Positions 3,756 through 58,740 are shown, numbered from the stretch's first letter. The stretch is DNA of 64,000 bases from Candidatus Heimdallarchaeota archaeon (GCA_015523565.1 WAKA01000204.1:12-64011), one strand, 5' to 3'. Made by a program: numbers and translations. Notes: a model not told the origin generated them from the sequence alone.

Positions 3756-4325
3756 TCAAGAGGTGGACATCCCCATTTCATTTTGGTATTCCAGTTTTTC
3801 TAGCTCCACCGCTACATTTTTTGATGTGAAAAAGGTTCCACCCAATCTCATCCCCTCTTTTTGGAATAATTTCGATGTTTTGGGATAAGTATGAAGGATA
3901 ATGGCAAAGGGGATCAGTCCAGCAAGGAAGGCGACAAATGCGATCAACCCTAAAGAGTCATTCTGTTCAAACCAAGAGGATATGCCAGCAATGTCCCCAA
4001 TTCCAAAAAATTGCGAAGAAGAGGTAATAAAGGTAAAGAGAATAAACCAGACAATATTAAATATGCGGAATCCCACTAATTTGGTAGTTTGTGGAGGAAG
4101 GAGATAAGGATCGTTTACCTTCGTTTTCATTCTTAAGACCAGCCAAAGTATTTGAAATTCCCTGACAGCAGCCATTGCCAAAAACAAATATATTGATAAA
4201 TAGATCAGCATTGGAACTGATTTTAAATCGAAGTGCAGGAGAATTGGAGTCAACAACAATAAAAGGAGAAAAAAAGCAACGGCAATACCTTCATTAATCT
4301 GTAAGCGATACAACTTCATTGACAC
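3756..4325 (-). CDS. Hypothetical integral membrane protein
   Basis: 189-aa ORF with about five hydrophobic helices. Its start touches the stop of the upstream ORF 4325..5509, so the two are probably co-transcribed. Confidence 0.5.
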   Translation of the reverse strand: MSMKLYRLQINEGIAVAFFLLLLLLTPILLHFDLKSVPMLIYLSIYLFLAMAAVREFQILWLVLRMKTKVNDPYLLPPQTTKLVGFRIFNIVWFILFTFITSSSQFFGIGDIAGISSWFEQNDSLGLIAFVAFLAGLIPFAIILHTYPKTSKLFQKEGMRLGGTFFTSKNVAVELEKLEYQNEMGMSTS

Positions 4326-5509
4326 TACCTCAATATACTTCTTGCCACGTTGTGGGGATGTTGAACAATTGTGAATAAATAAGATGCATATTTGTATTTA
4401 TTGGATTTGTTGAACCAATAACGACCATTGTCTTCTTCTTTTTCAGGTTCATTATTATCAATCCAAGCCTTGAACATCGGCGTTGGAACTACTTGAATTC
4501 CCATTCCGATTTTTAGGTCACCTTTCTTTCGTTGCCCTGCATGCCAGTTAATAACAATAATGAGAGCAGCAATCATTGCCATAAGCAAGGTAGTAGACAA
4601 GGCCACACTTATTCCCGCCATGGTAGAAAGTGCATTTACCATGTTTGAAAAATAGACACCAGTTGTAAATAGAGAAATGTCCTTTATAATATTCAAGAAC
4701 CATGGAGCTAGATTGAACCAAACAATATTTTCCAGATAAGTATATACACATTTTCCCAAAATACAATATTGAGTTGAAAGTGATTCTCTTTTCATTGCAA
4801 TTTGATACCCACTTTCAGTTTGTGAATAAAGGAATAATGGACTAGCAAGATTATTAAGAAGGGTATTTAATCTGAGGAATAGGTATGGCAAAATACGACG
4901 ACTATTTGCAATCAATAATGATACAAAATATGCACCAATCAATGCATCAACTTTCTTTTCAAAGGAAAAGACTTTTTTTCCAGTACTCTGAGTAAGTTCC
5001 GTAATTTTTGATGATTCACAACCTAATATATAGTGGTTATTGGATTTGGAATTACGAATCATACCTGCCAGTACAGTCCAAGATATTGTCTTACCATAGT
5101 ACAAGATACCTGAAAATGAGCTATGTCCGACATAGATGATTGGTCCTTTGAAGGATAAAATTCTGTCATAAACGGAAAAGTCCACCACCATTGCTTGAGG
5201 GAAGTTTGACCTTAGCTCTGCGATAGCAGCTAGTTCTTCCACGGAATCTCCGAACTGCACCACAAGTGGAGAGACGGCAGTGTTCGAAATGTCAAGGGTA
5301 TTTGCGAGTATGGGGGCAACTCCAGACATCGTCAAAATACTTATGAAAAACAAACCAAGAATTTGCGTTTTTGAAAGCATATGTCGTGGGGAAAAATTAA
5401 AAAAAAAATTTGGTAATGACATGAAAATTAGGAAAAGAATACAAAAACTATCCGAAATTCGAAAGCACAATATATTTGAGAAATGGGAGGCTAATAACAT
5501 TGGTCCCAA
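4325..5509 (-). CDS. Hypothetical membrane protein (N-terminal hydrophobic anchor/signal, central soluble region, C-terminal TM segments)
   Basis: 394-aa ORF with hydrophobic N-terminal segments and C-terminal TM helices (GISVALSTTLLMAMIAALIIVI). I recognised no motif. Confidence 0.5.
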   Translation of the reverse strand: MGPMLLASHFSNILCFRISDSFCILFLIFMSLPNFFFNFSPRHMLSKTQILGLFFISILTMSGVAPILANTLDISNTAVSPLVVQFGDSVEELAAIAELRSNFPQAMVVDFSVYDRILSFKGPIIYVGHSSFSGILYYGKTISWTVLAGMIRNSKSNNHYILGCESSKITELTQSTGKKVFSFEKKVDALIGAYFVSLLIANSRRILPYLFLRLNTLLNNLASPLFLYSQTESGYQIAMKRESLSTQYCILGKCVYTYLENIVWFNLAPWFLNIIKDISLFTTGVYFSNMVNALSTMAGISVALSTTLLMAMIAALIIVINWHAGQRKKGDLKIGMGIQVVPTPMFKAWIDNNEPEKEEDNGRYWFNKSNKYKYASYLFTIVQHPHNVARSILR

Positions 5510-5693
5510 TTATTTCATAAATGGAAATTATAATATTTGAGGGCATAGAAAAGCCCACGTTCAGAGAAGGGGAAGTTGAAAGCAATGTGAATTGAATGGT
5601 CAAGCGGGTGATTGAAAAGGGTATTGAAGGGTGTATTTTTGTCAGTTAATGATGGTATTGTTTTATAATGGTGTGGTTAAATTGGGATTGTAG

Positions 5694-7139
5694 ATGATAT
5701 CAGTACGTATAGAGTCAATTTATGCAGTAGGTTTGGCAAAGATTCTGATGGATTCAGGGGAGGATCTACAGATCATTTCAGCAAGTGATGAATTGCAGAA
5801 TGTATTGGGCTTGGAACCGCGAGTGGACACATTGGATGTGCATATTGGAGATATTTCAGATCGTTTTGGTCTTCAATTGAAAGGATCCCCAGAGCATGTG
5901 GATTTAGTTTTGTCTGTTCTTCGTAAGGAGTTGCCAGAAAGTTTAGTTTTTCGTCATGATCTGGAACAGGATGCAGTGTATTTTGCGATAGTTGATAATT
6001 ATCTTCCCCGAAAACGAATTGGTTTTCTTGATTTGGGAGGAGGTAAAACAGGGGTCATGTTTTCACCGAGATTGAAGATAGGATCCAAGATGATTGTACA
6101 GGTCAAAGAATTGCCATTGGAGGAGAACAAGTTCCCAATTTGTTCGGATCAGATAAACTTGGCAGGGGAATATGTAATTTTGGAGAAGGGTGAAGATGGG
6201 GAGTTTGTACGAGTAAGTAAGAAGATAGTTGGGGAGATGCGGGACAAGATGCATGAGCTTGGTCATCGCATTCGCCCACCAGGTTTTGGCTTGATACTTC
6301 GAACGAGTGCTCCAGAGGCAAGTGAAGAGGAATTGAGGGCTGAGGTTGAATATCTGAAAGGTATTTGGGATCGTGCCTTGGATGCCAAACGTGCAGGAAT
6401 TCCAAAGAAGATTACTTCAGGGGAGAGTATTGTTACGCTCTATCTTCATTATGGATCAAAGCAACGACTGGATGCCATTCGTTCAAAAGTCCAGAATGTG
6501 ATGAGGAAGTATCATTCATTTCGATCGTATTCAGTTGCAACAGGATTTGCAGTTGATTATATGCTGAACTTTCTTGATGAGATCGACAGTGAGGAAGCGT
6601 CAAGGGTAATGGAAGATATGATTCTTGGTAAAGATTACCGTCATGACCATCCCCTTCGAGCAGAATTCCATAAGATAGATGGTCGCGTATTTGATCCCAT
6701 TTTGGGAATAATCAAGAGTACAGCAGGAAGATTTGAATTGTATAAGCATTTGGATGAATACCATGCAACAAATGATGACAGCCAATTTGTGGTATATGAA
6801 GGTGATTACATTCGCACTTATTTTTCCGAGGGGTCATGGACAATCCATTACCAATATTACTCAGGTGAGGACAACCACTTGATTGGAGACCGTATTCAAG
6901 TGGTTACACCCATAGAACTGGCATTTCGAGGCAAAATACGTACAGTTGATTTTGGGATCAATGTTTATCGTGACAATTCTACAGGGGCAATAGATGTAAT
7001 AACTGAAAGTGATGATGATTTGCTGAGTGAAGGTGTTATCACGTCAGAATTGGATATAAAACTTGGAGAGGTTATTGAAAAAGTCTTGGGCTTATTGCGG
7101 GACGCAGAGAGAAAAGACCCCATTTTATTGCGTAACTAA
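5694..7139 (+). CDS. Probable FAU-1 family RNA-binding protein / RNase E/G-like ribonuclease
   Basis: 481-aa ORF. The N-terminus MISVRIESIYAVGLAKILMDSG resembles, from memory, the conserved archaeal FAU-1 N-terminus (M..VRIRGIYATALTKLL). The size of ~470-480 aa also fits. Recalled similarity only. Confidence 0.5.
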   Translation: MISVRIESIYAVGLAKILMDSGEDLQIISASDELQNVLGLEPRVDTLDVHIGDISDRFGLQLKGSPEHVDLVLSVLRKELPESLVFRHDLEQDAVYFAIVDNYLPRKRIGFLDLGGGKTGVMFSPRLKIGSKMIVQVKELPLEENKFPICSDQINLAGEYVILEKGEDGEFVRVSKKIVGEMRDKMHELGHRIRPPGFGLILRTSAPEASEEELRAEVEYLKGIWDRALDAKRAGIPKKITSGESIVTLYLHYGSKQRLDAIRSKVQNVMRKYHSFRSYSVATGFAVDYMLNFLDEIDSEEASRVMEDMILGKDYRHDHPLRAEFHKIDGRVFDPILGIIKSTAGRFELYKHLDEYHATNDDSQFVVYEGDYIRTYFSEGSWTIHYQYYSGEDNHLIGDRIQVVTPIELAFRGKIRTVDFGINVYRDNSTGAIDVITESDDDLLSEGVITSELDIKLGEVIEKVLGLLRDAERKDPILLRN

Positions 7140-7154
7140 TCTTATTGCAACCAA

Positions 7155-19007: not shown

Positions 19008-20189
19008 CTAATGTGTCCTTAGGTATTCCCTCATGCTTAGGGCGGCAGCTGCGCCCTCTCCCATGGCAGAAACAGCCTGCTTGGTTGATCCAGATCGAAC
19101 GTCACCAGCCGCAAACAATCCAGGTGTTTTTGTCATAAGGGTGCCGTCTGTAATTATAAATCCACCTTCATCCAAATCCACAAGATCCTTGACAATATCT
19201 GCATTTGGTGTTAAACCAATAAAAAGAAAAACACCATCTGGGTGAATGGTTTCTTGTTCACCTGTTTTCCTATTTTCGATGATTACACCTTCCAATGTTT
19301 TCTTGGAACCTGCCTTAAATTCTTTAACAACGAAACCAAGTTTTACATCTATGTTTTCTTTTTCATCGACCTTGTCCTGAAGGATTGGTGAAGCCTTTGG
19401 TGTCGATCTCACAAGAATGGTCACTTTCTTCAAATGCTGTGCAAGAAAGAGAGATTCCTCATAAGCAGAATTTCCTCCACCGACAACAATAACCTCTTTG
19501 TTTTTGTACCAAATAAAATCGCATGTAGCACAGAAATGTATTTTATAGCCTATCAATTCATCTTCACCAGGGACGCCCAATTTCCGGTATCTGGATCCAG
19601 TGGCAATAAGCATGGCTTTTCCAGAAGTTTCTTTTCCACTTTTTGATTTTGCCACAAGAATTCCATTTTCAACAAATACTTTTTCCACTTCAGTTGCCTT
19701 TAAAAATTCCACTCCAAATTGTTCAGTCTGCTTGACAATCCTTCTTGCCAACTCTGCGCCAGCAATTCCTTCTGGAAATCCAGGATAATTGTCCAATCTT
19801 TCAGTAAAACCTGCTTGCCCACCTAAAGATGCACGTTCAACTACAACAACGTCATATCCGTCTCTTGCATTATAAAGTGCAGCAGTTAATCCTGCTGGTC
19901 CGCCACCAACAATTACAATATCATGGAAATCATGACCCAAGTCACTTACAAGACCAAGTTTTTCCGCAAGTTCTGCATTTGAGGGTTCCACCAATACAGT
20001 TCCATCACTCAAAACGATAGTAGGTACCTTTCGTTTCCCATTGTTGATTTTCATGACAAATTCTGCTGCGTCAGGGTTGTTTTCAATATCTATCCAATTG
20101 TAAGGGATTCTGTGTTCCCCTAGAAATTGTTTGGCTCGTTTACAATCGCTGCACCATGATGTGCCATAGAACTTTTCAATTTCAACCAT
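19008..20189 (-). CDS. trxB: Glutaredoxin/thioredoxin-like domain fused to thioredoxin-disulfide reductase
   Basis: N-terminal ~85 aa: YGTSWCSDCKRAKQFL..VPTIVLSDG (CxxC thioredoxin fold). The rest has an FAD motif IVGGGPAGLTAA, the redox-active CATCD, an NAD(P)H motif VVGGGNSAYEE, and the C-terminal GLFAAGDV. Confidence 0.85.
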   Translation of the reverse strand: MVEIEKFYGTSWCSDCKRAKQFLGEHRIPYNWIDIENNPDAAEFVMKINNGKRKVPTIVLSDGTVLVEPSNAELAEKLGLVSDLGHDFHDIVIVGGGPAGLTAALYNARDGYDVVVVERASLGGQAGFTERLDNYPGFPEGIAGAELARRIVKQTEQFGVEFLKATEVEKVFVENGILVAKSKSGKETSGKAMLIATGSRYRKLGVPGEDELIGYKIHFCATCDFIWYKNKEVIVVGGGNSAYEESLFLAQHLKKVTILVRSTPKASPILQDKVDEKENIDVKLGFVVKEFKAGSKKTLEGVIIENRKTGEQETIHPDGVFLFIGLTPNADIVKDLVDLDEGGFIITDGTLMTKTPGLFAAGDVRSGSTKQAVSAMGEGAAAALSMREYLRTH

Positions 20190-20268: not shown

Positions 20269-23200
20269 CTATTTACGTTTTGTACCAATAAATGAAGCAA
20301 TCCCTGGACCACCATTGGATGGTGCCACTTGCCAATCAGAAACTGAGTCCGTATCAATTGTCAAGCTTGTTCGGACAATAGTTTGACCAGTTGATGCAGT
20401 TATGTCCCAACCAGCAACATAATTCTCCCATGCAACAAAATCAATTTCAGTTCCACTTGAATCTTTGAGACTTAGTTTATCACCACTATTGCCCAATGCC
20501 AAATTAAGGTCTCCAAAGTCGGGGTTAAAGCCATATAGTGCGTTAAATCCAGTTGTTGATCGGGCAAATATCAAAAACCCACCTGCCAGGATAATTGTTC
20601 CAGATGCGATCGTATATGTTCTGGAATTGTCGGATATCGTCCAACCTGAAAGGTCAACAGCAGATGACGTAGGATTATAAAGTTCAATCCATTCCTCTTT
20701 GCTATCTGTTCCAGGAGTGTCATAAAGAACCTCAGAGATGATGACATGTGATAGTGATTGATTTAATGTTGTTGCATTGACAAGCATGGATTTTATGCCT
20801 TCATTCCCAGAGGTATCAACAGCGCTTACTTCGTAGGTATAGGTTGTAGAGGCTGTTAATCCAGTATCATTGAACACTGCCATTTGACTTGTCCCTATTA
20901 GATTTCCATTACGATAAATGTTGTAATGATCAAGGTCAGATTCCGTATTTGCATTCCAAACCAAATCTATTTGGGAAGAAGACATAGCACTTGCAACTAA
21001 TCCTTGTACTTGACTAGGGGGAGTAGTATCTGGAGGAATCCAGCTACTTAGATCAAAAATCCCGTCAACAGAATAATGATCAGAAGCACCAGTTGCAGAG
21101 GAGGTATCTCCAACTGTTGAGGAGACCATTTTTGTTGCCATGAAGTCATTTACAACCATAAAATCAATCCTGGATTCATATGGTGCAGTATAGTATGTAT
21201 ATCCAGGTTCAGTTGGATTTAATGTCCTAAACACATCCGTAAATGTATGGACTGAGGAAGAATATTGCGCATAGGTTGCGTTCGTAGGATCTATAAGCAT
21301 AGTCATGGGACCATATCCCAAATTCCCATTTGGAGAGAGGATACCAGTGTCTTGTGGGGAGAATGAATTGAGGTCTCCAGCATAGATAATGTTGGTGTCA
21401 TTGCCCAACCCATCCATATAGTTAATTATTCCTTCTTGTGCCCTTTCTCGTTTGTTTTCATTGGTTGTACCACTAGAGGCCTTCAGATGTGCACCGATTA
21501 GATGGACTACACCAGTTCCAATTGCAAGTGTCACATCAAGAAAATCATGGGAAACATCATAAGTTGACCCATCATCTAAAGTAACGAGTGGGATTGATTT
21601 TCCAGATAGGATTGACACTCTACTTAAAACTACCAGACCAGTGTACATACTTCCTTGACCAAGAGTCATTGCTTGTGAATAAGGGAGTTCAGAAGAGAAA
21701 TAGGTATTTAACTCCACCAGCAGTTTATTTATTGATGAATTTCCACGATCATCAAAATCACCTGCCTCAACAAGAAGAACAATGTCAGCATTTTCTTCCT
21801 TCAATACATCAATATATCCAGGATTTGTGCCTGATGCCTCTATATTGTACGTCATAAATTTCACGGCAGAGTAATTCAAGGGAGTAATTCCAGAATATCC
21901 AGTATTATCGACATTTACAGTTATAGAAATGGTGTTTGTATTGCCAAACATATCTGTAACACTTGCAGAAATGGTATGTGCACCATTTCCATAGCTTGTG
22001 GTATCCCAAAGGTACATGCTTGAAGCAGTCACTTCCATTCCATCTATCGATATGCCCCATTGGTTCATATAGCTTCGATCATTTGCATCCAAGGCAATTG
22101 TTGTCCATCCAGATACAGTTTGACCTTCAGTAAGACCGATAAATGAGATTTGGGGGCTTTCCAATTCTATACCCCAAGATGAAAGGTGACCAGTAGCTGG
22201 ATTTAAGACGGGTTGCGTATTTGTTCCGTCTGCATTTTGTCTTTCCGCGAATTCAGCAGAACAACCTGTTGTTTCTCCAGCCCATGTAACTGCACTAACG
22301 CAATAATAATATGTTGTTCCCACTGCCACATTGCTATCGGCATAATATCCAACAGCCCAATTCAACTCTTGAAGCAAATCCCATGTACCAACTGTTTCAT
22401 TCCATCTCCAAACCAAATATCCTTTTACAATATCAGAAGGAGTATTTCCATTCAAATGAGGTCTCCATGTAATAAAGTTTTCACCAGGATAGCCACTATA
22501 GTGACGTGTCACAATTCTTGGGACAGCCAATGGATCTGTGTCATAATTATCTGCATCTTGCTTGTATTGTTTCACTCTCGCGATATATTTTGATGCAATT
22601 GTTGGGTTATGGATAACTATGGAATTTTCATCGTTGTTATTAAATCCAGAACCGCTCCAGTTAGTGCTACCAGTCCACACTATTGTTCCGTCAAATACTC
22701 CAAACTTATGGTGATATACACCTGGATTCGCATCTACAACACCGCCACCCCATGAAATAATGTCATCTGCTTCACTATAGGCATTTCTCCATCCGCGATA
22801 ATCAAATACGCCAACTATTGTAACTCCCCTATCCCGAGCTCTGACGATTGCGTCATAAATAGTGTCTTCAGTTAAATAAAAGAGGGATAGGTAAATAGAA
22901 CTATTGCTTGAATCTATTAATTCAATTAATCGGGTCAACCCATTATCCTTGGGTGCAAAGTAAGCCTCTATCTGTATAGATCCTGCCATTGCCAATTCTG
23001 CGTTGTTATCTGTTTTTGATGACCCATAAACATTAGAGAACAACTGAGTAAATTCATCGGTATAAATACTTGCCAATTCAATACTTTTCACTTGCACAGC
23101 ATCGTTTGCATTGAACAGCGTTCCTGTTTCTGTCGGATTCCATGAGCCAGTGAAAACATATTCACCGTCCACTATGAAAAATTTGTTGTGCATTATGTTT

Positions 23201-24318
23201 GAGGTTGTAACAGAAGTTACAGAAATCCCTGCATCAACCAATTGCTGGAATTCACCAATATTATCACCATGTGCAGCAATCCGAACCTGTACCCCACGAC
23301 TATTTGCATTGAGTAGCGCATCAATCACAGGTTGCCATGTTAGGTGGTATAAAGCGGCGTCAATACTTATATTTGCACTGTTTAACAAGTTTACAATTCC
23401 TGTTGAAATATTTCCTTCAACTAAATTTTCCATTGTTGGTACGGCAGCCAAGGGATCTGTAAAATAAACCTTTATCAGGTCAGATACGGGACTATTATCA
23501 ACAGTTACATCCTTTGATGCAGTACCTACATTTCCACTGCCATCAGTAGCGTCACAGGCAATAGTATGCAATCCCTGTGTTTCAGAGGTTGTGTCCCATA
23601 AGTAACTTGACGTTTGTGATCTTTCAACACCATCAATTTTTAGGGAATAGCTTGAAATTACTCCAGAATCGTCAGTAGCAGTGCAACTTATTGTCACAGT
23701 TCCAGCCACAACGGTATTTGTTGGACTGTCAATAGTCACCAATGGTGCAGTAATGTCACCATTCCCATATCCAGACCCAGGAGTGCCCAAATCATTTCGA
23801 GCTTGCCAATCATTGCCTGAATCAGTATCCACAGGCATTTGGGATGCATCTTTCATCCTTTCAATGGAGGCATCAACTGCACTTGCAGACCAACCTGCAA
23901 CATAGTTTTCCCAAGCGACATAATCCACAGTTACACCATTATTATCAATTAATGTAAGTTCATCACCACTATTACCCAAAGCCAATGTTATTTGCCCATC
24001 AGGAAGAAATCCATATAATGATTGGAAACCAGCGTTATCCCGTGCGAGAACAAGATAACCACCAGCAGGAATTACAACAGAAGGCAATGCATTGCTTTTT
24101 GTATTGTCTGCGAGAGTCCATCCAGTTACCGAAATTGAGGTGGTAGAGGGATTAAATATCTCTACCCATTCACAAGTTGAATCACATCCTGGGGTATCAT
24201 AAAGAACTTCGCTTATAACCAAGTTTGTTCCAGATGGATTTGACTTTATTCTAAAGTTTACCACACTAAGTGAAATGGTGAGAATTATCAAAATTGACAG
24301 ATAGCTTTTGTTCTTCAA
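20269..24318 (-). CDS. Secreted multidomain nuclease/phosphodiesterase: LTD - Ig - PLD(2xHKD) - FN3 - Ig - EEP - FN3 - LTD
   Basis: 1349 aa with a signal peptide (SYLSILIILTISLSVVNF). Lamin-tail-like domains lie at aa ~32-178 and ~1190-1335 (VISEVLYDTPG.DS..EW.E..NP...GWT..DN ... AWENYVAGW). Two HKD motifs are present (HNKFFIVDG..GSWN at aa 377; HHKFGVFDG..GSTNWS..ND at aa 536). An endonuclease/exonuclease/phosphatase-like region spans aa ~815-1090 (FMTYNIE..DIVLLVEAG..GDLNS..SDHYSV). There are also FN3-like and Ig-like modules. Confidence 0.8.
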   Translation of the reverse strand: MKNKSYLSILIILTISLSVVNFRIKSNPSGTNLVISEVLYDTPGCDSTCEWVEIFNPSTTSISVTGWTLADNTKSNALPSVVIPAGGYLVLARDNAGFQSLYGFLPDGQITLALGNSGDELTLIDNNGVTVDYVAWENYVAGWSASAVDASIERMKDASQMPVDTDSGNDWQARNDLGTPGSGYGNGDITAPLVTIDSPTNTVVAGTVTISCTATDDSGVISSYSLKIDGVERSQTSSYLWDTTSETQGLHTIACDATDGSGNVGTASKDVTVDNSPVSDLIKVYFTDPLAAVPTMENLVEGNISTGIVNLLNSANISIDAALYHLTWQPVIDALLNANSRGVQVRIAAHGDNIGEFQQLVDAGISVTSVTTSNIMHNKFFIVDGEYVFTGSWNPTETGTLFNANDAVQVKSIELASIYTDEFTQLFSNVYGSSKTDNNAELAMAGSIQIEAYFAPKDNGLTRLIELIDSSNSSIYLSLFYLTEDTIYDAIVRARDRGVTIVGVFDYRGWRNAYSEADDIISWGGGVVDANPGVYHHKFGVFDGTIVWTGSTNWSGSGFNNNDENSIVIHNPTIASKYIARVKQYKQDADNYDTDPLAVPRIVTRHYSGYPGENFITWRPHLNGNTPSDIVKGYLVWRWNETVGTWDLLQELNWAVGYYADSNVAVGTTYYYCVSAVTWAGETTGCSAEFAERQNADGTNTQPVLNPATGHLSSWGIELESPQISFIGLTEGQTVSGWTTIALDANDRSYMNQWGISIDGMEVTASSMYLWDTTSYGNGAHTISASVTDMFGNTNTISITVNVDNTGYSGITPLNYSAVKFMTYNIEASGTNPGYIDVLKEENADIVLLVEAGDFDDRGNSSINKLLVELNTYFSSELPYSQAMTLGQGSMYTGLVVLSRVSILSGKSIPLVTLDDGSTYDVSHDFLDVTLAIGTGVVHLIGAHLKASSGTTNENKRERAQEGIINYMDGLGNDTNIIYAGDLNSFSPQDTGILSPNGNLGYGPMTMLIDPTNATYAQYSSSVHTFTDVFRTLNPTEPGYTYYTAPYESRIDFMVVNDFMATKMVSSTVGDTSSATGASDHYSVDGIFDLSSWIPPDTTPPSQVQGLVASAMSSSQIDLVWNANTESDLDHYNIYRNGNLIGTSQMAVFNDTGLTASTTYTYEVSAVDTSGNEGIKSMLVNATTLNQSLSHVIISEVLYDTPGTDSKEEWIELYNPTSSAVDLSGWTISDNSRTYTIASGTIILAGGFLIFARSTTGFNALYGFNPDFGDLNLALGNSGDKLSLKDSSGTEIDFVAWENYVAGWDITASTGQTIVRTSLTIDTDSVSDWQVAPSNGGPGIASFIGTKRK

Positions 24319-30417: not shown

Positions 30418-31110
30418 TCAATCTGTAGAAAATGGCTTTCTAAAATACACAAGGGCCGATAGGATACTGGCACCAATGATGACTGCAAGGGTTGTTGAAA
30501 TAACTAATGTCCAGTCAACATCAGTAACCTCAAACTTAGGATAATAGAGGTCGTCATCTGACTTTTCCTCAATTGGGAAAAATTCAAGGGAAACACGATT
30601 CCCAGTAACAGTATGAGGGTCTCCCCAATGATCCAAATAATCAACAGTAACTGGATCAATATCAAATACCTTATCCCGAGTCGCATTAACACTAATTGCA
30701 AAAGAGATCCCAGAACCGTTGATCAATGAATCAAAGTTAAACCTATAATAGGTTTTGTTGAAGAATGCAGAGTTAATGTGAATCATTTTTCCATCAGCCA
30801 TTGGCATTTCTGCTGGGGTCGTAATATTGACGACGTCGGTAAGATTGCCGAATGGGGAACGGACAATTTCCAAGTCATTTGGCAGGGACTGCGAAACATT
30901 GACATTGCGCATTGTATCGTTTGAAAGATTTTTTATCAGTACTGTAATGTTCACCCATGTTCCAGGGTTCAGTTGGTTATCTAAAGCCGCTGCATCATGA
31001 ATGGATATGATGGACACCTTATTTGGATCGGTTTTGAATGCAGATGCAGGCATAAGGCTTAAACTGAGAAATAATGTCAACAGAAAAATTGATTTGCCCT
31101 TCACGGTCAC
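30418..31110 (-). CDS. Surface-exposed protein: signal peptide, sequon-rich beta domain, C-terminal TM anchor
   Basis: 230 aa with a GTG start preceded by AGGAG. Signal peptide IFLLTLFLSLSLMPASA; at least 7 N-x-S/T sequons; C-terminal TM helix LVISTTLAVIIGASILSALVYF. Confidence 0.55.
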   Translation of the reverse strand: MTVKGKSIFLLTLFLSLSLMPASAFKTDPNKVSIISIHDAAALDNQLNPGTWVNITVLIKNLSNDTMRNVNVSQSLPNDLEIVRSPFGNLTDVVNITTPAEMPMADGKMIHINSAFFNKTYYRFNFDSLINGSGISFAISVNATRDKVFDIDPVTVDYLDHWGDPHTVTGNRVSLEFFPIEEKSDDDLYYPKFEVTDVDWTLVISTTLAVIIGASILSALVYFRKPFSTD

Positions 31111-31154: not shown

Positions 31155-31170
31155 GCTAGCGATCGCTAGC
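31155..31170. promoter_or_regulatory. Perfect 16-bp palindrome GCTAGCGATCGCTAGC in a divergent promoter region
   Basis: The palindrome is directly readable. On the minus strand it abuts an ATTAAATAAAG TATA-like element about 40 nt upstream of the GTG at 31110. On the plus side it is followed by two copies of TTAGACATT (31171-31179 and 31193-31201) bracketing a TCAAATAAAAAT TATA-like box. Confidence 0.35.
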
Positions 31171-31327
31171 TTAGACATTTTCAAATAAAAATTTAGACAT
31201 TAAGAAGAAAATATGACTGGCAAGTAGAAAAATGTAATAAAGCATTGAAACAATTGAGAAAATGGGGTAGATCCAAATACTTCCTGAAGATGACTATTGG
31301 GCTCGCCTTGCAATAGAGGCAAATGAA

Positions 31328-31738
31328 ATGAGAAGAGAAGAACCTAGTTTTGAACCAATCAATAATGATGTTACAAGATGGAAAGGTTTCATTATTGGTA
31401 CTGGGTTATATGATGGAGGGGTATTTGTGTTTGAAATAAGAATTCCAAGGGAGTATCCCTTTAAGCCCCCTGAAGTTAAAACAAAAACCCAGATTTTTCA
31501 TCCCAATTTTTTCAAGGACAGGATTTGTGTAGGAATTTTGGGCAAGGATTGGACACCTGCAAACAATCTTGTTGATGTTGTGGAAAGCCTAAGATTTTTA
31601 TTAAGCAATCCAAATCCAGATGATCCACTCCATTCAGGAGCCGCAAAAATGATGAAAGAGAATCCAGAAGAATTCAAAAAGAAAGTTCGGGAATGGATTG
31701 ATAAATATGCAACATGGGATCAACCCGATCTTTATTAG
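31328..31738 (+). CDS. Ubiquitin-conjugating enzyme E2 (UBC fold, eukaryote-like)
   Basis: Canonical UBC core: YDGGVFVFEIRIPREYPFKPPEVKTKTQIFHPNFFKDRICVGILGKDWTPANNL..LLSNPNPDDPL, with the HPN motif, catalytic Cys and a conserved Trp. GAGG lies 8 nt upstream of the ATG at 31328. Helix-1-like sequence continues in frame upstream (see findings). Confidence 0.85.
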   Translation: MRREEPSFEPINNDVTRWKGFIIGTGLYDGGVFVFEIRIPREYPFKPPEVKTKTQIFHPNFFKDRICVGILGKDWTPANNLVDVVESLRFLLSNPNPDDPLHSGAAKMMKENPEEFKKKVREWIDKYATWDQPDLY

Positions 31739-31820
31739 TGGCTTACCAATTTAACTTAGTAACTTTTCCAACATTAAATAAGAAGATTTATGGAAACATT
31801 GATTGTTTTGAAAGATATAC

Positions 31821-32177
31821 ATGAGATCATTCCGGTTGAAACTTCGATTTTGGAGAAGAGGAAAACCTATTTTAAAAGAACCTAGAAAAAAGGTTGAGCT
31901 TAATCTTGAAAAAGCACATGAAAAATTCATAAGTCTTAGTAAAAGACTAGAGAAGATTATGAGTGAGGAATCTGAGGCAAATGCATGTGAATCGCAAATA
32001 CTATCAGAAGTTTCATTTTTAGAAGATACACAAGTTTATGAAGCAGTATTAGGACGAGTTCAAAAAGTCCCTTACCCATTGCTCAATGAAAATGATTTAG
32101 GGGTATGGCTACTTGATTACTATACATCACTAATTGCGAAAATAGAGGCTTTGCTTGAATTGGAGGAAGACATATGA
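31821..32177 (+). CDS. Hypothetical 118-aa protein between E2 and the 1036-aa ORF
   Basis: The ORF has a very basic N-terminus and a helical, acidic remainder. Its stop overlaps the ATG of the next ORF (ATGA at 32174-32177). The N-terminus is uncertain because a 31-codon ORF from the ATG at 31790 overlaps it in another frame. Confidence 0.45.
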   Translation: MRSFRLKLRFWRRGKPILKEPRKKVELNLEKAHEKFISLSKRLEKIMSEESEANACESQILSEVSFLEDTQVYEAVLGRVQKVPYPLLNENDLGVWLLDYYTSLIAKIEALLELEEDI

Positions 32178-35100
32178 CAACGCTTTTGTTATTTACATCA
32201 ATGAAGGAGGGTACAGAACATTTAGAACAGATTCATAGTTATGCAACCTTATGGAAAGGAAACAAGACAAATGACATGATTCAATTTGTGGATAGCTTTC
32301 TTGATCCCATAGAATGGGAAAGTTTTGACCCTTGGGAGGATCACCATTCTCTAATTATTCAAAATGGGATGACTATCTTTATTGGTTGGAAGGTTGAATT
32401 GCAGAGTGGAATCATAATTTTTAATTCAATTTTGTCTCAAGAAACAGATATTTCAAAATTTCTTAATTGGATTTGGTCATTTACACATACTAGTGCAAAA
32501 TATTGGGATGAATTATTGGAGGAATTAATCGATCAAGAAGAAGAAACAATTTCTAAAATCCCTATAGATATAACAAATCATCATATACAAATTGATTTTG
32601 AAGATAGAGGGACATTCATAAATAAGGTTACACAATTTTTCCAAGACAATATATTTGCAATTCTTTTCTCACCTCATGTCTTGATTGATGCTGAAAAGAT
32701 GGAATTTGAAGTTTTACAAGAGGTTTCTCTTAATGATCTTGAAATGTTTTACAATGCATTGAACTCTTCTAACCAACACATTAAGCATTTTACTGAGAAA
32801 ATTGTTTTTTGGCTCTCATTTAAGAATTATGAAGATCGAACAAAGGAGATACAAAAAATCATTAAATTGGTTGCAGATTTACTTTTGCTTGATTCCGTCC
32901 CTTCAATGGCAATTTTAGCGAAACACGCAGAAATGCTAAGTAATATTGACAAAGATCATTTTCTACTTTTGGTTCAACAATCTATTCAAGAGTTTAAACC
33001 AGACCTAAGTATTTCTGTTGAAGACCTAATAAGAATGGCAGACATAGTCTATAAAGACAGTCAAGAATTAGCGTTCATGATTGCAGGTCTTGCACTTGAA
33101 TTTATATTTAAAGACAATTCACTTGATTCTCTTGTTCTTATGGCAAAAACAATTTCTCATTGGAATACAAAGCAAATGATTGCGTTGGTTGAAACCCTTG
33201 CATCGCAATATCCCAGTCCAACTGAAGAACAAAAAGAAATACTCACAAAAGTTTATGATGAATTAAGCAAAGACATATCCGATCCAGAAGGCATTGAGTC
33301 TATTGCGAATGCATACTGTACTATAGGCAGACAAAAAGAGGCAGTTCTTCTGCGATTAAAACAATTTGACAAGATTGAGGATGAAACTGACACATTTGCC
33401 CTAGTAGAAGTGATTAAATGGGCAATTAGAATTCCAGGCATTGAAGACAAAGAACTTGCAGAAATTATAGCACCCTATTTTCTGACTGCAATGGAAACTT
33501 CCCCGGCAGGACCTTATTTTCCAGATCAAATTGGGGAAATTTACGAATATTTAGAAAAAGACCAAAAGAAAATTCTAATACTTGCAATTACAACCCAGAT
33601 TGTCAAGAATATTGATCTGGTGCCTATTTTGGAGCAATCTAGGACATTAGAAATAGTTAAGGGGTTCTTGAAAAACAAAAATGATTTTCTTGATTTAGTT
33701 GCAATTGTCAATGCAAAATTACACGAACTGTTAATGGAAGAAGGCAAAGAATCAAAAGAAATTGTAAAAGAGTTGTTTAGCTATATTGAAACAAGGAGAG
33801 GGTCTAAAGAAATTATTTTACCAATAATAGAGAAGATGTTGGTTACAACTGCAAAATTTGGGTCAGTTGAAACATATACTAGAGTTCTAGATTTTATTAA
33901 AACAATGGAGTTGGATATAAAGACAAGACACAGAATTTTTGAAATGATGGATTTGGCAGCTAAAAATGCAGTCAGTTTTCAATTAGAAGAAACAAATAAA
34001 GAGCTTGGGATTCAAATCTATTATGATATCCTTTCTTTTGCCATCATCAACGAGGATAGTGAAATACTTGCTCAAATAATGGAACATGCAGTTCAAAATG
34101 CGATTGAAATTGACAAAAGAGAAGCAATCATTGATTTTTCCAAAGGATTATTTACCTTTTCACAAATTGCAGGGATTCAATCATGGGTAGGGAAAATGAA
34201 TGAATTAATGGAAAAAATTGTTGAAAATGGAAAAGTGGAACTCTCAAAAGTTATTTTCCATGAAATTATCGAACTTGCCCCACCTCCAAATGACAAAGAG
34301 CAATTAATAGAAAAACAATTGGACATTGCCTCAAAAATACCAGACTATCTTTCCCCTGATGAAGAAACAGCGATGTGGCAAAACCTTTTGGCAATATTCA
34401 ATTTACAACAAAAATATGACGAAATCCTTGAAACAGTTGAAAGAGGATATCATGCATTTATTTCCCATAATCGTCCAATTGAAGCCTTTCATTTCTTAAT
34501 TGATGCCATTAATGTTTTAGATAGGGACGATTTTGATTCATTAGAACCAAAGCTTATTGATTCCTATCTTTCGGTTATTGATTTTTTTGAAAATGAGGCA
34601 GACAGTAAATTTGTTGCAAAAACACTTTATAATTTATTTACAGAACTTCTTAATCACGTATCAAAACATCTTTCAAGATTAAATGAAGCTATTGAAATTA
34701 CAATAAGCGAGTTAATCATCAGGTATATCAAGACAAAGGATGTCAAACAATTAGAATATGCCAATATTTTCCTTACGTTTGTTATAGAGAAGATTCCCAT
34801 TGAAGAAACATTGCCTATTCTCATCAAATCCTTTGATCAAATAATTCGGACACGAAAAAAATTTGATCCAAAATATTCTTTATTTAATGAGTTTATGGAT
34901 CGACTTAGATTTTTGAGTGCAACGAGGCAAAGAAGAGAAGGCTTGAAAGAGCTAAGGAAAATCCTTTATAAGTTTAAGAAAGCTGCTTCAAAGGACAATA
35001 AGATTAAGCAGGAGATGATTATTGGGATTTATTTAATTGGAAGTTTTTATTTTCAAATGGATTGTGATTTTGATGAGCAATGTAAAATTGAAATACAAGA

Positions 35101-35284
35101 AATAGCTGTAAATTATTTTGAGGCCATGATTGGGTTGAGCAAGAAGGAAACTGGGTTTACAGAGTTAATCCATGAGCTTTATGAAAAAGTAAGGCGGTCT
35201 CCTTCAGAAATTCGAACAATCGTTTTTCATCTTGATAGATTGATTAATTCCTACGAAGAGTATGAGCTTTTATTGGCCCGTTAG
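32174..35284 (+). CDS. Large (1036 aa) predominantly alpha-helical repeat (solenoid-like) protein with a mixed alpha/beta N-terminal ~110 aa
   Basis: A long uninterrupted ORF with coding-like composition and translational coupling to the upstream ORF. Leu/Ile/Glu/Lys-rich amphipathic segments run throughout, with no TM segment and no catalytic motif recognised. Confidence 0.7.
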   Translation: MTTLLLFTSMKEGTEHLEQIHSYATLWKGNKTNDMIQFVDSFLDPIEWESFDPWEDHHSLIIQNGMTIFIGWKVELQSGIIIFNSILSQETDISKFLNWIWSFTHTSAKYWDELLEELIDQEEETISKIPIDITNHHIQIDFEDRGTFINKVTQFFQDNIFAILFSPHVLIDAEKMEFEVLQEVSLNDLEMFYNALNSSNQHIKHFTEKIVFWLSFKNYEDRTKEIQKIIKLVADLLLLDSVPSMAILAKHAEMLSNIDKDHFLLLVQQSIQEFKPDLSISVEDLIRMADIVYKDSQELAFMIAGLALEFIFKDNSLDSLVLMAKTISHWNTKQMIALVETLASQYPSPTEEQKEILTKVYDELSKDISDPEGIESIANAYCTIGRQKEAVLLRLKQFDKIEDETDTFALVEVIKWAIRIPGIEDKELAEIIAPYFLTAMETSPAGPYFPDQIGEIYEYLEKDQKKILILAITTQIVKNIDLVPILEQSRTLEIVKGFLKNKNDFLDLVAIVNAKLHELLMEEGKESKEIVKELFSYIETRRGSKEIILPIIEKMLVTTAKFGSVETYTRVLDFIKTMELDIKTRHRIFEMMDLAAKNAVSFQLEETNKELGIQIYYDILSFAIINEDSEILAQIMEHAVQNAIEIDKREAIIDFSKGLFTFSQIAGIQSWVGKMNELMEKIVENGKVELSKVIFHEIIELAPPPNDKEQLIEKQLDIASKIPDYLSPDEETAMWQNLLAIFNLQQKYDEILETVERGYHAFISHNRPIEAFHFLIDAINVLDRDDFDSLEPKLIDSYLSVIDFFENEADSKFVAKTLYNLFTELLNHVSKHLSRLNEAIEITISELIIRYIKTKDVKQLEYANIFLTFVIEKIPIEETLPILIKSFDQIIRTRKKFDPKYSLFNEFMDRLRFLSATRQRREGLKELRKILYKFKKAASKDNKIKQEMIIGIYLIGSFYFQMDCDFDEQCKIEIQEIAVNYFEAMIGLSKKETGFTELIHELYEKVRRSPSEIRTIVFHLDRLINSYEEYELLLAR

Positions 35285-36807: not shown

Positions 36808-37170
36808 ATGAAGCTCAGAGAAATTGCGGCTCAAGCTATTGAAATCATTAAGGAACGGGGAGCAGAAGGAATAAACAACGCAGAATTGGCACAATTGGTA
36901 GGAACGCCAAAAAGAAGGGTGTATGATGTCATTGCTATCCTTAAGGCGGCAAACCTAATAACAACAGAACGTGATGGATCAGGGACTAGAATCTATTGGA
37001 CTGATGAAAGCCAAGAACTGCAGCAACAATCCAATGGAACTTCATTTGTTGCATCAAAACTACGGGTGTACACAGATGGATCCATCTACAATGTTGCAAA
37101 TAGAGGATCTGAAGTGGTAATTGAATTGGATGATCAAGCAAATCTTTTGATTGAGACATTAAACGATTAA
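36808..37170 (+). CDS. E2F/DP-family-like winged-helix DNA-binding protein (120 aa)
   Basis: Residues 3-64 (LREIAAQAIEIIKERGAEGINNAELAQLVGTPKRRVYDVIAILKAANLITTERDGSGTRIYW) align by eye with the E2F DNA-binding domain (..[41 protein letters not shown]). This includes the DNA-contacting RRxYD motif (36913-36927) and the terminal Trp. GAGG lies 8 nt upstream of the ATG. Confidence 0.65.
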   Translation: MKLREIAAQAIEIIKERGAEGINNAELAQLVGTPKRRVYDVIAILKAANLITTERDGSGTRIYWTDESQELQQQSNGTSFVASKLRVYTDGSIYNVANRGSEVVIELDDQANLLIETLND

Positions 37171-57945: not shown

Positions 57946-58740
57946 GTGATTGATGAAGCATGGCTGTTCAATAAAGATGGAATGCCCATTTGGTCCTATT
58001 CAATAAATCCTTCAGGATACAATGAAGCCTTAATAGGAACAATTATAGGAGCATTAACCCTTTTTTCTTCTGAATTTTCAGGAAAGGAAATTACCTCAGT
58101 AGAAATGGAGGATAAGGTATTTCATATTAAGCCATTCGGCGAGATAGGTATATTGGTAATAAATGGTGATAAGTCAGACCTCCAAAATACAAAGATTCAA
58201 AATATTGTTAACAAGATCAATGCATCAATAGACCTATTGCATCAATCCGAACATATAGATTTGAAATTGCTTGATGAGGAAACTTTAAAATTTTACTTAA
58301 ATGATCTCTTGATATCATTGGAAAAGGTTATGGATGAGTTAGCAGGAAAGTCCCCCAAACAGCAACACAAGGTAAATATTCTTGAAATAAACTTTTTCAG
58401 GAAATTGCAAAGGATTTCTTCCGATTTGGAAAATGATGAAATAGGAATATTGGTATTAGATGAATCATTGTCAGAATTAGGTACGGTTACATCTGAAAAA
58501 GTCAATAAATCAATCCTTAGCAAGATAAAGAATCATTTTGTAGGGTGGACTAAAGGGAACCCATTAGACAGGACAATGTTCCCCCATTTTATATTTACAA
58601 AAGAGTATGGGGTTAGAATTAAAATAATTAAGGGAATAATATGCATTGTTGTTATGAAATGGCGAGGAGGAATAGGGAATTTGCAAGACTATAACAGGTT
58701 AAAGTCTTGGACATCACTCATTACAAAACTGATCAGCTAA
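57946..58740 (+). CDS. Tandem longin/roadblock-like domain protein
   Basis: 264 aa with a GTG start. Domain 1 reads AWLFNKDGMPIWSY..EALIGTIIGALTLFSSEFS..VEMEDKVFHIKPFGEIGILVING..IQNIVNKINASIDLL. Domain 2 reads IGILVLDESLSELGTV..SILSKIKNHFVGW..FIFTKEYGVRIKIIKGIICIVVMKW.. Confidence 0.5.
   Translation: MIDEAWLFNKDGMPIWSYSINPSGYNEALIGTIIGALTLFSSEFSGKEITSVEMEDKVFHIKPFGEIGILVINGDKSDLQNTKIQNIVNKINASIDLLHQSEHIDLKLLDEETLKFYLNDLLISLEKVMDELAGKSPKQQHKVNILEINFFRKLQRISSDLENDEIGILVLDESLSELGTVTSEKVNKSILSKIKNHFVGWTKGNPLDRTMFPHFIFTKEYGVRIKIIKGIICIVVMKWRGGIGNLQDYNRLKSWTSLITKLIS

Follow-up and report, generated by a model that had tools for sequence, protein, structure and literature searches.

Here we describe a three-gene neighbourhood in a 64,000-nucleotide stretch of DNA from a Candidatus Heimdallarchaeota archaeon (GCA_015523565.1 WAKA01000204.1:12-64011; hereafter the window, with positions counted from its first letter), in which the gene of a UBE2D-like ubiquitin-conjugating enzyme (E2) is followed by genes for a small protein of 118 amino acids and a large protein of 1036 amino acids. 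Our analysis of this trio points to an archaeal system centred on the E2, with a partner complex that is restricted in lineage and has not been described before. Ten lineages carry the small and large genes as a pair, and in nine of them the pair adjoins an orthologous E2 gene, as would be expected from an earlier reading of the window from its sequence alone (the sequence-only reading), which had proposed the three genes as a novel module. The linkage is well supported, as is the standing of the trio as a conserved neighbourhood; we conclude that selection upholds it, and the E2 and the pair are probably linked in function as well.

The arrangement of the trio differs among lineages, being co-directional in the order E2, small, large in the window and in loci L002, L003 and L055, and divergent, with the pair transcribed away from the E2 gene, in L006, L007, L008, L051 and L054. 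The E2s beside the pair are 66–88% identical. L002 and L003 have the whole ten-gene block in common with the window, and L006 has most of the flanking genes in rearranged order, meaning that these three loci add little independent evidence on context. Both flanks are wholly different from those of the window, and unlike each other, in L007/L008, L051, L054 and L055, where the neighbours are RFC and EF2-like GTPase genes; HerA/Mre11/nitroreductase and Exo_endo_phos genes; DUF92 and glycine-cleavage genes; and an Lhr helicase gene. At least five unrelated flanking contexts are found across the loci that combine E2 and pair. On a rough and unreliable neighbour-joining tree of about 150 residues, the E2s that adjoin the pair form a paraphyletic set among the Heimdall orthologues, suggesting that the association is old and survived rearrangements, and that elsewhere the pair was lost, moved or diverged beyond recognition. 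The module is confined to one branch of Heimdallarchaeia, and a scan of Joint Genome Institute metagenomes with the E2 gave 35 loci, none of which has the pair. We found no description of the trio in the literature on Asgard ubiquitin clusters and longin/solenoid proteins, which, our coverage being incomplete, is absence of evidence only.

The features of the trio, in order of position, are these:

31264–31270, plus strand: putative Shine-Dalgarno-like, purine-rich element GGGGTAG, 6 nucleotides upstream of the E2 start.
31277–31738, plus strand: E2 ubiquitin-conjugating enzyme, UBE2D-like, 153 residues, identified through Pfam and the PDB, with its start read from 30 orthologous loci.
31739–31820, plus strand: 82-nucleotide spacer with the TATA-like, A/T-rich element TTAAATAAG about 40 nucleotides upstream of the 118-residue reading frame.
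31821–32177, plus strand: small partner, 118 residues with a helical body, of a family found in every lineage with the large protein.
32162–32177, plus strand: coupling junction, with GGAGG at 32162–32166 (within the 3' part of the small gene, 8 nucleotides upstream of the ATG) and the stop/start overlap ATGA at 32174–32177.
32174–35284, plus strand: large partner, 1036 residues, of a family of about 1030–1080 residues, defined by phmmer relatives and an AlphaFold2 model.
32174–32488, plus strand: predicted N-terminal domain of the large partner, residues 1–105, of topology β-β-α-β-β-β-α in both models.
32582–32761, plus strand: predicted second small α/β element, residues 137–196, assigned by DSSP on the models.
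32774–35281, plus strand: predicted α-solenoid, residues ~201–1035, with about 40 helices of TPR/Sel1/HAT-like type in the AlphaFold2 model.
33311–33748, plus strand: most conserved stretch, residues 380–525, with the motifs W-A-[LI]-x-I-P-G, S-P-x-G, K-N...L-D-[RQ] and E-E.

Read from the first ATG, the three open reading frames span 31328–31738 (136 residues), 31821–32177 and 32174–35284, and the spacer, the overlap and the two downstream frames are all present as the sequence-only reading had claimed. The region occurs in identical form in assembly GCA_027071915.1, on contig JALSYK010000646, where three genes are called at the same coordinates and only the first, the E2, carries a Pfam domain. 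In an AT-rich genome, a 3.1-kb reading frame whose length is kept in ten lineages is far beyond chance.

The large protein defines a previously undescribed, confidently folded family of Heimdall-group archaea. Searching 1.84 billion representative proteins with phmmer gave eight matches, seven of which (each a cluster at 50% identity) are 1033–1080 residues long and collinear with the window's protein from end to end at 16–34% identity, while the remaining match is a piece of the protein encoded in the window itself. These relatives emerged solely by this exhaustive search, a word-index search with the 1036-residue protein having returned only itself; the same search with the 118-residue protein returned itself and one near-identical (99%) copy. 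The large proteins of L007/L008 were missed by BLAST and by a hidden Markov model (HMM) of four sequences, and belong to the family by their 118 + 1082-residue architecture, a collinear hhalign match of 462 columns (P = 5e-4) and detection by phmmer and an 11-member HMM. The large partner has no Pfam, NCBIfam or PADLOC match, and a profile search of the PDB led to designed helical repeats only; the small partner has no match in Pfam, NCBIfam or PADLOC, nor to any natural protein in the PDB. The view that both partners lie outside any described family is thus upheld.

Conservation within the large protein is concentrated in residues 380–525, where A390, W416, G446, N479, L492, L508 and E522 are invariant, and this stretch is a plausible candidate for a partner-binding or docking surface. 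No alignment column holds Cys or His in at least six of the 11 family members, and each protein of more than 1000 residues has only 2–5 Cys. Because there is no conserved Cys or His, a RING, U-box, HECT or RBR ligase can be ruled out for the large protein.

Structure prediction agrees with the sequence-only reading in giving the large protein a mixed α/β N-terminus followed by about 900 residues of helices. The AlphaFold2 model of the 1036-residue protein, built from an alignment of eight sequences, has a mean predicted local distance difference test (pLDDT) of 85.6 and a predicted template modelling score (pTM) of 0.48, and a separate model of residues 1–235 reaches a pLDDT of 83.6 and a pTM of 0.84. 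In the latter, the elements of the N-terminal domain are strands at 2–8 and 23–28, a helix at 33–42, strands at 57–63, 66–73 and 78–85, and a helix at 90–104; W27 is invariant, and most members carry a W-x-G-S-H-P-G-D motif. Foldseek matches of residues 1–235 are nearly all longin or roadblock proteins (Fuzzy/Inturned/CPLANE, Sec22b, TRAPP, zeta-COP, FNIP/FLCN, LAMTOR, Mon1-Ccz1 and DENND1), at non-significant scores (best E 0.077, probability at most 0.72, template modelling (TM) scores 0.15–0.48), and we regard the predicted N-terminal head as longin-like with moderate confidence, a feature that the sequence-only reading had not anticipated. A DENN module was considered and rejected: the second α/β element is only ~60 residues with three short strands, and the DENND1 matches have E 0.25–0.42. 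Elsewhere in the window, a 264-residue reading frame at 57946–58740 has no Pfam match, and its N-terminus, MIDEAWLFNKDGMPIWSY, resembles the start of a roadblock/longin-type domain; it could be relevant if the longin-like head has partners.

The remainder of the large protein is modelled as helix pairs with a period of ~37 residues. Searching the PDB with the whole model, Foldseek retrieved Ctr9, TPR subunits of IFT-A, Ski3, SYF1, importin-13, transportin-3, an APC/C subunit and VPS35L, and matches among viral models are giant-virus TPR/Sel1 proteins, several of them with RING domains. Pfam TPR models match only one of the 11 family members, and on the models the protein is a TPR-like α-solenoid by fold class, not by sequence family. 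The remote-homology search that the sequence-only reading had recommended therefore returned generic solenoids and a non-significant longin/roadblock-like head; the proposed solenoid with a distinct α/β N-terminus stands, while its description as cullin-, HEAT- or ARM-like does not, as the fold matches are of generic TPR/HAT/HEAT type with TM scores of 0.1–0.25 and include no cullin among the 50 listed. A cullin was also rejected because no Pfam cullin model matches any of the 11 family members and there is no RING gene among the window reading frames scanned, and a karyopherin-β because neither Pfam IBN_N nor HEAT models match and the importin fold matches reach TM scores of only 0.16–0.24.

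The small partner has a basic N-terminal motif, F-R-R-x-K-P-x-x-K-x-P-R-K-K-[VL]-E, whose conserved P-R-K-K contains an invariant Lys, and a C-terminal D-F-S-[LV]-W-L. Its gene overlaps that of the large partner or lies no more than 4 nucleotides from it, with a G-rich motif 7–10 nucleotides upstream, in seven of the eight lineages examined, an arrangement that marks the two as a translationally coupled operon. In the five divergent lineages the pair must have its own promoter. Elements of ATTATAA type comparable to that of the window occur in the spacers of L002, L003 and L055, and since such TATA-like elements are accompanied by a divergent arrangement in half of the lineages, the spacer likely holds a separate promoter for the small and large genes.

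The E2 itself is a canonical member of its family, as the sequence-only reading had concluded from the UBC core at 31328–31738. It matches Pfam PF00179 (UQ_con) with 121.5 bits (cut-off 27, E = 2.6e-35) over profile positions 14–139 of 140, and its closest solved relatives are UBE2D1/2/3, with E ~1e-29 (UBE2D2, E = 1.3e-29). The HPN motif (H75-P76-N77, 31499–31507) and the catalytic Cys84 in ICVGIL (31526–31528) align with the HPN and Cys85 of UBE2D2, as do the YPFKPP loop, with the equivalent of F62, and NPDDPL. As all of these are kept, the enzyme looks active and able to engage partners.

Its translation start differs from both earlier assignments. The sequence-only reading had begun the feature at 31262, where an ATG is followed two codons downstream by a TAG (ATG GGG TAG), which rules it out; this TAG is part of the GGGGTAG element. 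Database gene calls begin the E2 at the internal ATG at 31328, giving a product of 136 residues that lacks the α1 helix, the contact for E1 and E3, which is in the product only if translation begins at the ATA at 31277. We read the start site in 30 orthologous loci, 28 of them Asgard (Heimdall-type). In these 28, the N-terminus is M-L-[PSA]-E or M-E-L-S-E, and the start codon is either the same codon as the window's ATA or one codon upstream. Most loci have ATG; GTG is used by L054 and by the second L051 E2, ATT by L006, and ATA by L002, L003 and L009 as well as the window. The α1 residues between 31277 and the annotated ATG, LPEDDYWARLAIEANE, are conserved with synonymous nucleotide differences, and the stretch after the start, LPEDDYWARLAIEA, likewise shows conservation at the protein level with synonymous changes. 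Since the homologues also start at this codon, comparison of the loci indicates that the real E2 is a 153-residue protein read from a near-cognate ATA. Upstream, GGGGTAGAT is conserved in L002 and L003, and GGTTAG stands at the same spacing before an ATG in L013/L016/L017. The weak start codon, kept in five species, may reflect deliberately low translation of the E2.

Upstream of the E2 gene lies a divergent gene for a DUF11-like membrane protein (30418–31110). We rejected it as a fourth member of the module, as it is found only in the window, L002, L003 and L006; a 231-residue gene of L055 and a 221-residue gene of L013 are unrelated to it. Between this gene and the E2, at 31155–31170, is a perfect 16-bp palindrome, GCTAGCGATCGCTAGC, that follows a box, TTTATTTAA. 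The 28-bp element formed by box and palindrome is identical in L002 (9884–9899) and absent from the other loci and the rest of the window. The palindrome is a possible operator; its presence only in the window and L002 led us to reject a module-wide one. In L051 (4463–5449), two tandem E2 genes, with 66% and 47% identity to the window's E2, are divergent from the pair, a lineage-specific duplication of the E2 within the module.

Orthologues of the E2 are far more widespread than the pair. Heimdall, Hod, Thor, Odin and further Asgard bins yielded 68 relatives of 38–88% identity in a word-index search, and scanning a single genome for each GTDB species revealed 49 E2 loci. In the Aigarchaeota loci L043–L047 the E2 lies inside a classical operon of ubiquitin, E2 and E1. 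In two large Heimdall clades, its orthologue sits among RadA, radical-SAM/FolE2/QueC (queuosine-pathway), aminotransferase and pyrophosphatase genes. A ubiquitin-like and E1-like pair occurs 4–5 kb from an E2 orthologue in only two sampled Heimdall genomes, at three loci (L009, and L042, which is the same contig as L056). At L042 (14313–15622) and L009 (4743–6110), a ubiquitin-like gene of 96–101 residues adjoins a compact, 330-residue E1-like (ThiF-type) gene; the ubiquitin-like proteins have a Gly-Gly followed by a C-terminal extension, and both gene products are 32–38% identical to ubiquitin and E1 of Aigarchaeota.

Within the window, tblastn with the nearest Heimdall ubiquitin and E1 and with the Aigarchaeota operon queries gave no match, and Pfam found no ubiquitin, ThiF, RING or JAMM domain in 33 window reading frames and the central 20 kb, a scan outside which lie ~15 large, housekeeping-looking reading frames. 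The claim that ubiquitin, E1, RING and deubiquitinase (here JAMM) genes are missing from the window therefore agrees with our searches, as far as these reach, while the idea that detachment of the E2 is a peculiarity of this locus does not hold: the orthologue sits among housekeeping genes in most sampled Heimdall genomes, so the detachment is general among them. Hatano et al. (PMC9192718) describe several E2-like paralogues per Heimdall genome, and the window's E2 is evidently a stand-alone paralogue. A reading frame at 1473–1904, with a weak tblastn match to the Aigarchaeota E2, was rejected as a second E2-like gene, having no match in Pfam, to the window's E2 or in the PDB.

In another Heimdall clade (L011, L014, L015, L019, L020, L025 and L040, positions ~3850–7150), a protein of ~1085 residues with a long Lys/Ser/Thr-rich, low-complexity middle is encoded two genes upstream of the E2 orthologue, from which it is separated by a methionyl-tRNA-synthetase-like gene and an 86-residue gene. 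With an hhalign probability below 1%, these proteins were rejected as relatives of the large partner. The clade has the E2 orthologue and lacks the small and large pair within 10 kb of it.

The members of the trio evolve at very different rates. Identity between the window and L002 (10522–14009) drops to 42% for the small protein and 31% for the large one, compared with 88% for the E2 and 64–95% for the ten neighbours in the block, and in every lineage the E2 retains 66–79% identity as against 13–22% for the large protein. Judged from these alignments, the pair appears to be under much looser, or diversifying, constraint, with length and fold kept.

We infer the following mechanism. The 118- and 1036-residue proteins would be made from one translationally coupled mRNA and form a heterodimer in which the giant TPR-like solenoid holds the small helical protein. 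This complex, which has no catalytic or zinc-binding residues, would serve the UBE2D-like E2 encoded alongside as a non-catalytic scaffold or adaptor, docking the E2 or its ubiquitin thioester (E2~Ub) through the central surface (residues ~380–525) or the longin-like head. Docking would decide the site or the target of modifier discharge by the E2, with ubiquitin and E1 supplied from elsewhere in the genome. Precedents can be found among the generic fold matches, namely the importin-13–Ubc9 complex (2xwu), the APC/C TPR subunit and the giant-virus proteins that combine RING and TPR. We put the probability that the pair is such a scaffold or adaptor at roughly 45%. A further-reaching version, in which the pair would be a RING-independent, E3-like targeting complex that joins an E2 of UBE2D type to a coat- or TPR-like solenoid with a longin head, is quite unlikely.

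Several observations weigh against a scaffold or adaptor. The E2 orthologue is widespread and works without the pair in most Heimdall genomes, and the family of the pair is tiny; the pair also evolves much faster than the E2, which is unusual for a tightly co-adapted partner. The PDB matches of the solenoid have E-values of 1e-6 to 1e-3 yet TM scores of only 0.1–0.25, and so amount to generic repeat-protein similarity. Longin-like domains usually indicate roles with GTPases or in membrane traffic, not with ubiquitin. In assembly CAZRLL01, the pair is on L052/L053, the surrounding 6 kb contain no E2 gene, and the E2 orthologue of the assembly lies on a separate contig, L005, so adjacency of E2 and pair is not obligatory.

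The domain matches invite an alternative in which the pair is a longin-and-solenoid complex regulating membrane traffic or small GTPases, comparable to longin-domain platforms for guanine nucleotide exchange or GTPase activation (GEF/GAP), or to a coat trunk carrying a fused sigma/zeta subunit, and would do no more than share regulation with the E2 or be targeted by it. Almost all proteins in the N-terminal Foldseek list are indeed of longin/roadblock type, the solenoid resembles IFT-A, VPS35L and importins, and the strongly basic N-terminus of the small protein could bind membranes. We nevertheless consider this unlikely, as none of the N-terminal matches is significant, none of the ten loci has a linked small GTPase gene, the full-length matches are led by TPR/HAT proteins and not by coat adaptins, and the sole consistently linked gene is that of the E2. 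The small protein, the large protein or both could instead serve the E2 as a dedicated substrate, or as a target in its autoregulation, for example through the lysine-rich N-terminus of the small protein, where the invariant Lys of P-R-K-K would be at hand; the fast evolution of the pair relative to the enzyme, and the weak ATA/ATT starts in five sampled species, which suggest tightly limited expression, would fit. Dedicated enzyme–substrate gene pairs are, however, rare for E2s, and a length-conserved solenoid of 1000 residues with a conserved internal patch looks more like a binding platform, making this option improbable.

Chance must also be weighed, since a fast-evolving, lineage-specific repeat-protein operon may have come to lie near the E2 and been inherited there without function. 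All carriers belong to one part of Heimdallarchaeia, the full synteny of the ten-gene block in L002 and L003 gives no independent evidence, the genes are unlinked in one genome, and the short tree is unreliable; yet the trio stays adjacent in L007/L008, L051, L054 and L055, where both flanks differ, its orientation has flipped between lineages without separating the genes, and retention while large-protein identity falls to 16–22% is unlikely without selection. We hold such inherited synteny to be hardly probable. Very improbable, finally, is a conflict or defence module, in which a diversifying TPR receptor would recognise foreign proteins and pass them to the E2. Bacteria have known E2-containing defence operons, the distribution of the pair is patchy and narrow, and the pair is the fastest-evolving part of the block in the comparison with L002. 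The E2, however, is a slow-evolving, widely conserved orthologue of housekeeping type, no defence, integrase or mobile-element genes are nearby, and the strictly conserved length and collinearity are atypical of arms-race receptors. The PADLOC E2 model reaches only E = 0.014 (13 bits) and the partners have no match, on which grounds the known anti-phage E2 systems (PADLOC E2, E1-E2) were rejected.

Set against described systems, the trio has partial likenesses only. To our knowledge, archaeal E2s have so far been tied only to small RING proteins and ESCRT/UEV components. The described archaeal systems are the Caldiarchaeum subterraneum operon of ubiquitin, E2, E1, a small RING finger protein and Rpn11, as well as Asgard ubiquitin/ESCRT clusters (PMC5654768, PMC9192718). 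The same UBC-type E2 is found in such operons, those of Aigarchaeota having E2s 45–47% identical to the window's, whereas the conserved neighbours of the window's E2 are two proteins without a counterpart there. Solenoid E3 scaffolds such as cullins, APC/C TPR subunits, HUWE1 and listerin offer a long, non-catalytic helical-repeat platform of the kind that would position an E2, and both an APC/C TPR subunit (5l9u_O) and the giant-virus RING and TPR proteins are among the fold matches; the large protein differs in that cullin-homology, RING, U-box and HECT domains are all missing from it, and its resemblance to such scaffolds is of a generic kind (TM 0.1–0.25).

Karyopherins provide solenoids of ~900–1000 residues that bind an E2 directly, as in importin-13–Ubc9, whose chain 2xwu_B ranks 17th in the Foldseek list; importin-11–UbcM2 is a further karyopherin–E2 cargo complex, and the P-[RK]-K-K motif of the small partner resembles a nuclear localisation signal. 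However, the large protein has no importin-β N-terminal or Ran-binding signature, archaea have no nucleus, and the repeat period is TPR-like, not HEAT-like, so we treat this resemblance, an analogy, as a lead and not a test. Small E2-binding activators or anchors are known in Cue1–Ubc7 and Pex22–Pex4, where a short helical protein acts with a specific E2, and the 118-residue protein is a possible analogue; there is no detected sequence similarity, and its gene is coupled to that of the giant protein, not to that of the E2. The N-terminal domain has the β-β-α-β-β-β-α topology of longin/roadblock regulators, but without a significant match (E at least 0.077), a tri-longin or DENN architecture or a linked GTPase, and we know of no longin head fused to a ~830-residue TPR-like solenoid in these families.

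Other genes of the window deserve mention. A 120-residue protein at 36808–37170 carries a winged-helix domain of the E2F/DP family (Pfam E = 8.4e-08), a type characteristic of eukaryotes, and is found with 72–76% identity beside an aminotransferase gene in L002 and L006. On the minus strand, 20269–24318 encodes a multidomain protein of 1349 residues whose hydrophobic N-terminus resembles a signal peptide and which unites two PLD-like domains, an Exo_endo_phos nuclease/phosphatase domain, Ig-like and fn3 domains and two lamin-tail domains, and 19008–20189 encodes a protein of 393 residues that joins a glutaredoxin domain to a pyridine nucleotide-disulphide oxidoreductase resembling thioredoxin reductase.

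Asgard archaea provide the reference for tracing how a minimal cassette of ubiquitin, E1, E2 and RING protein developed into the hundreds of scaffolded ligases of the eukaryotic ubiquitin system. The trio is a clonable system of three proteins (~153, 118 and 1036 residues) with ten natural variants, and lets one ask whether E2s were already directed by non-RING solenoid platforms in archaea, or whether ubiquitylation was tied there to longin-type machinery. Should the link between E2 and pair be merely regulatory, a new protein family and a corrected start annotation of a widespread E2 remain. If the pair is indeed a targeting complex, it would connect ubiquitin conjugation with trafficking-type scaffolds in a prokaryote, and could serve as a model for the pre-eukaryotic origin of solenoid E3 scaffolds, be they APC/C-, cullin- or adaptor-like.

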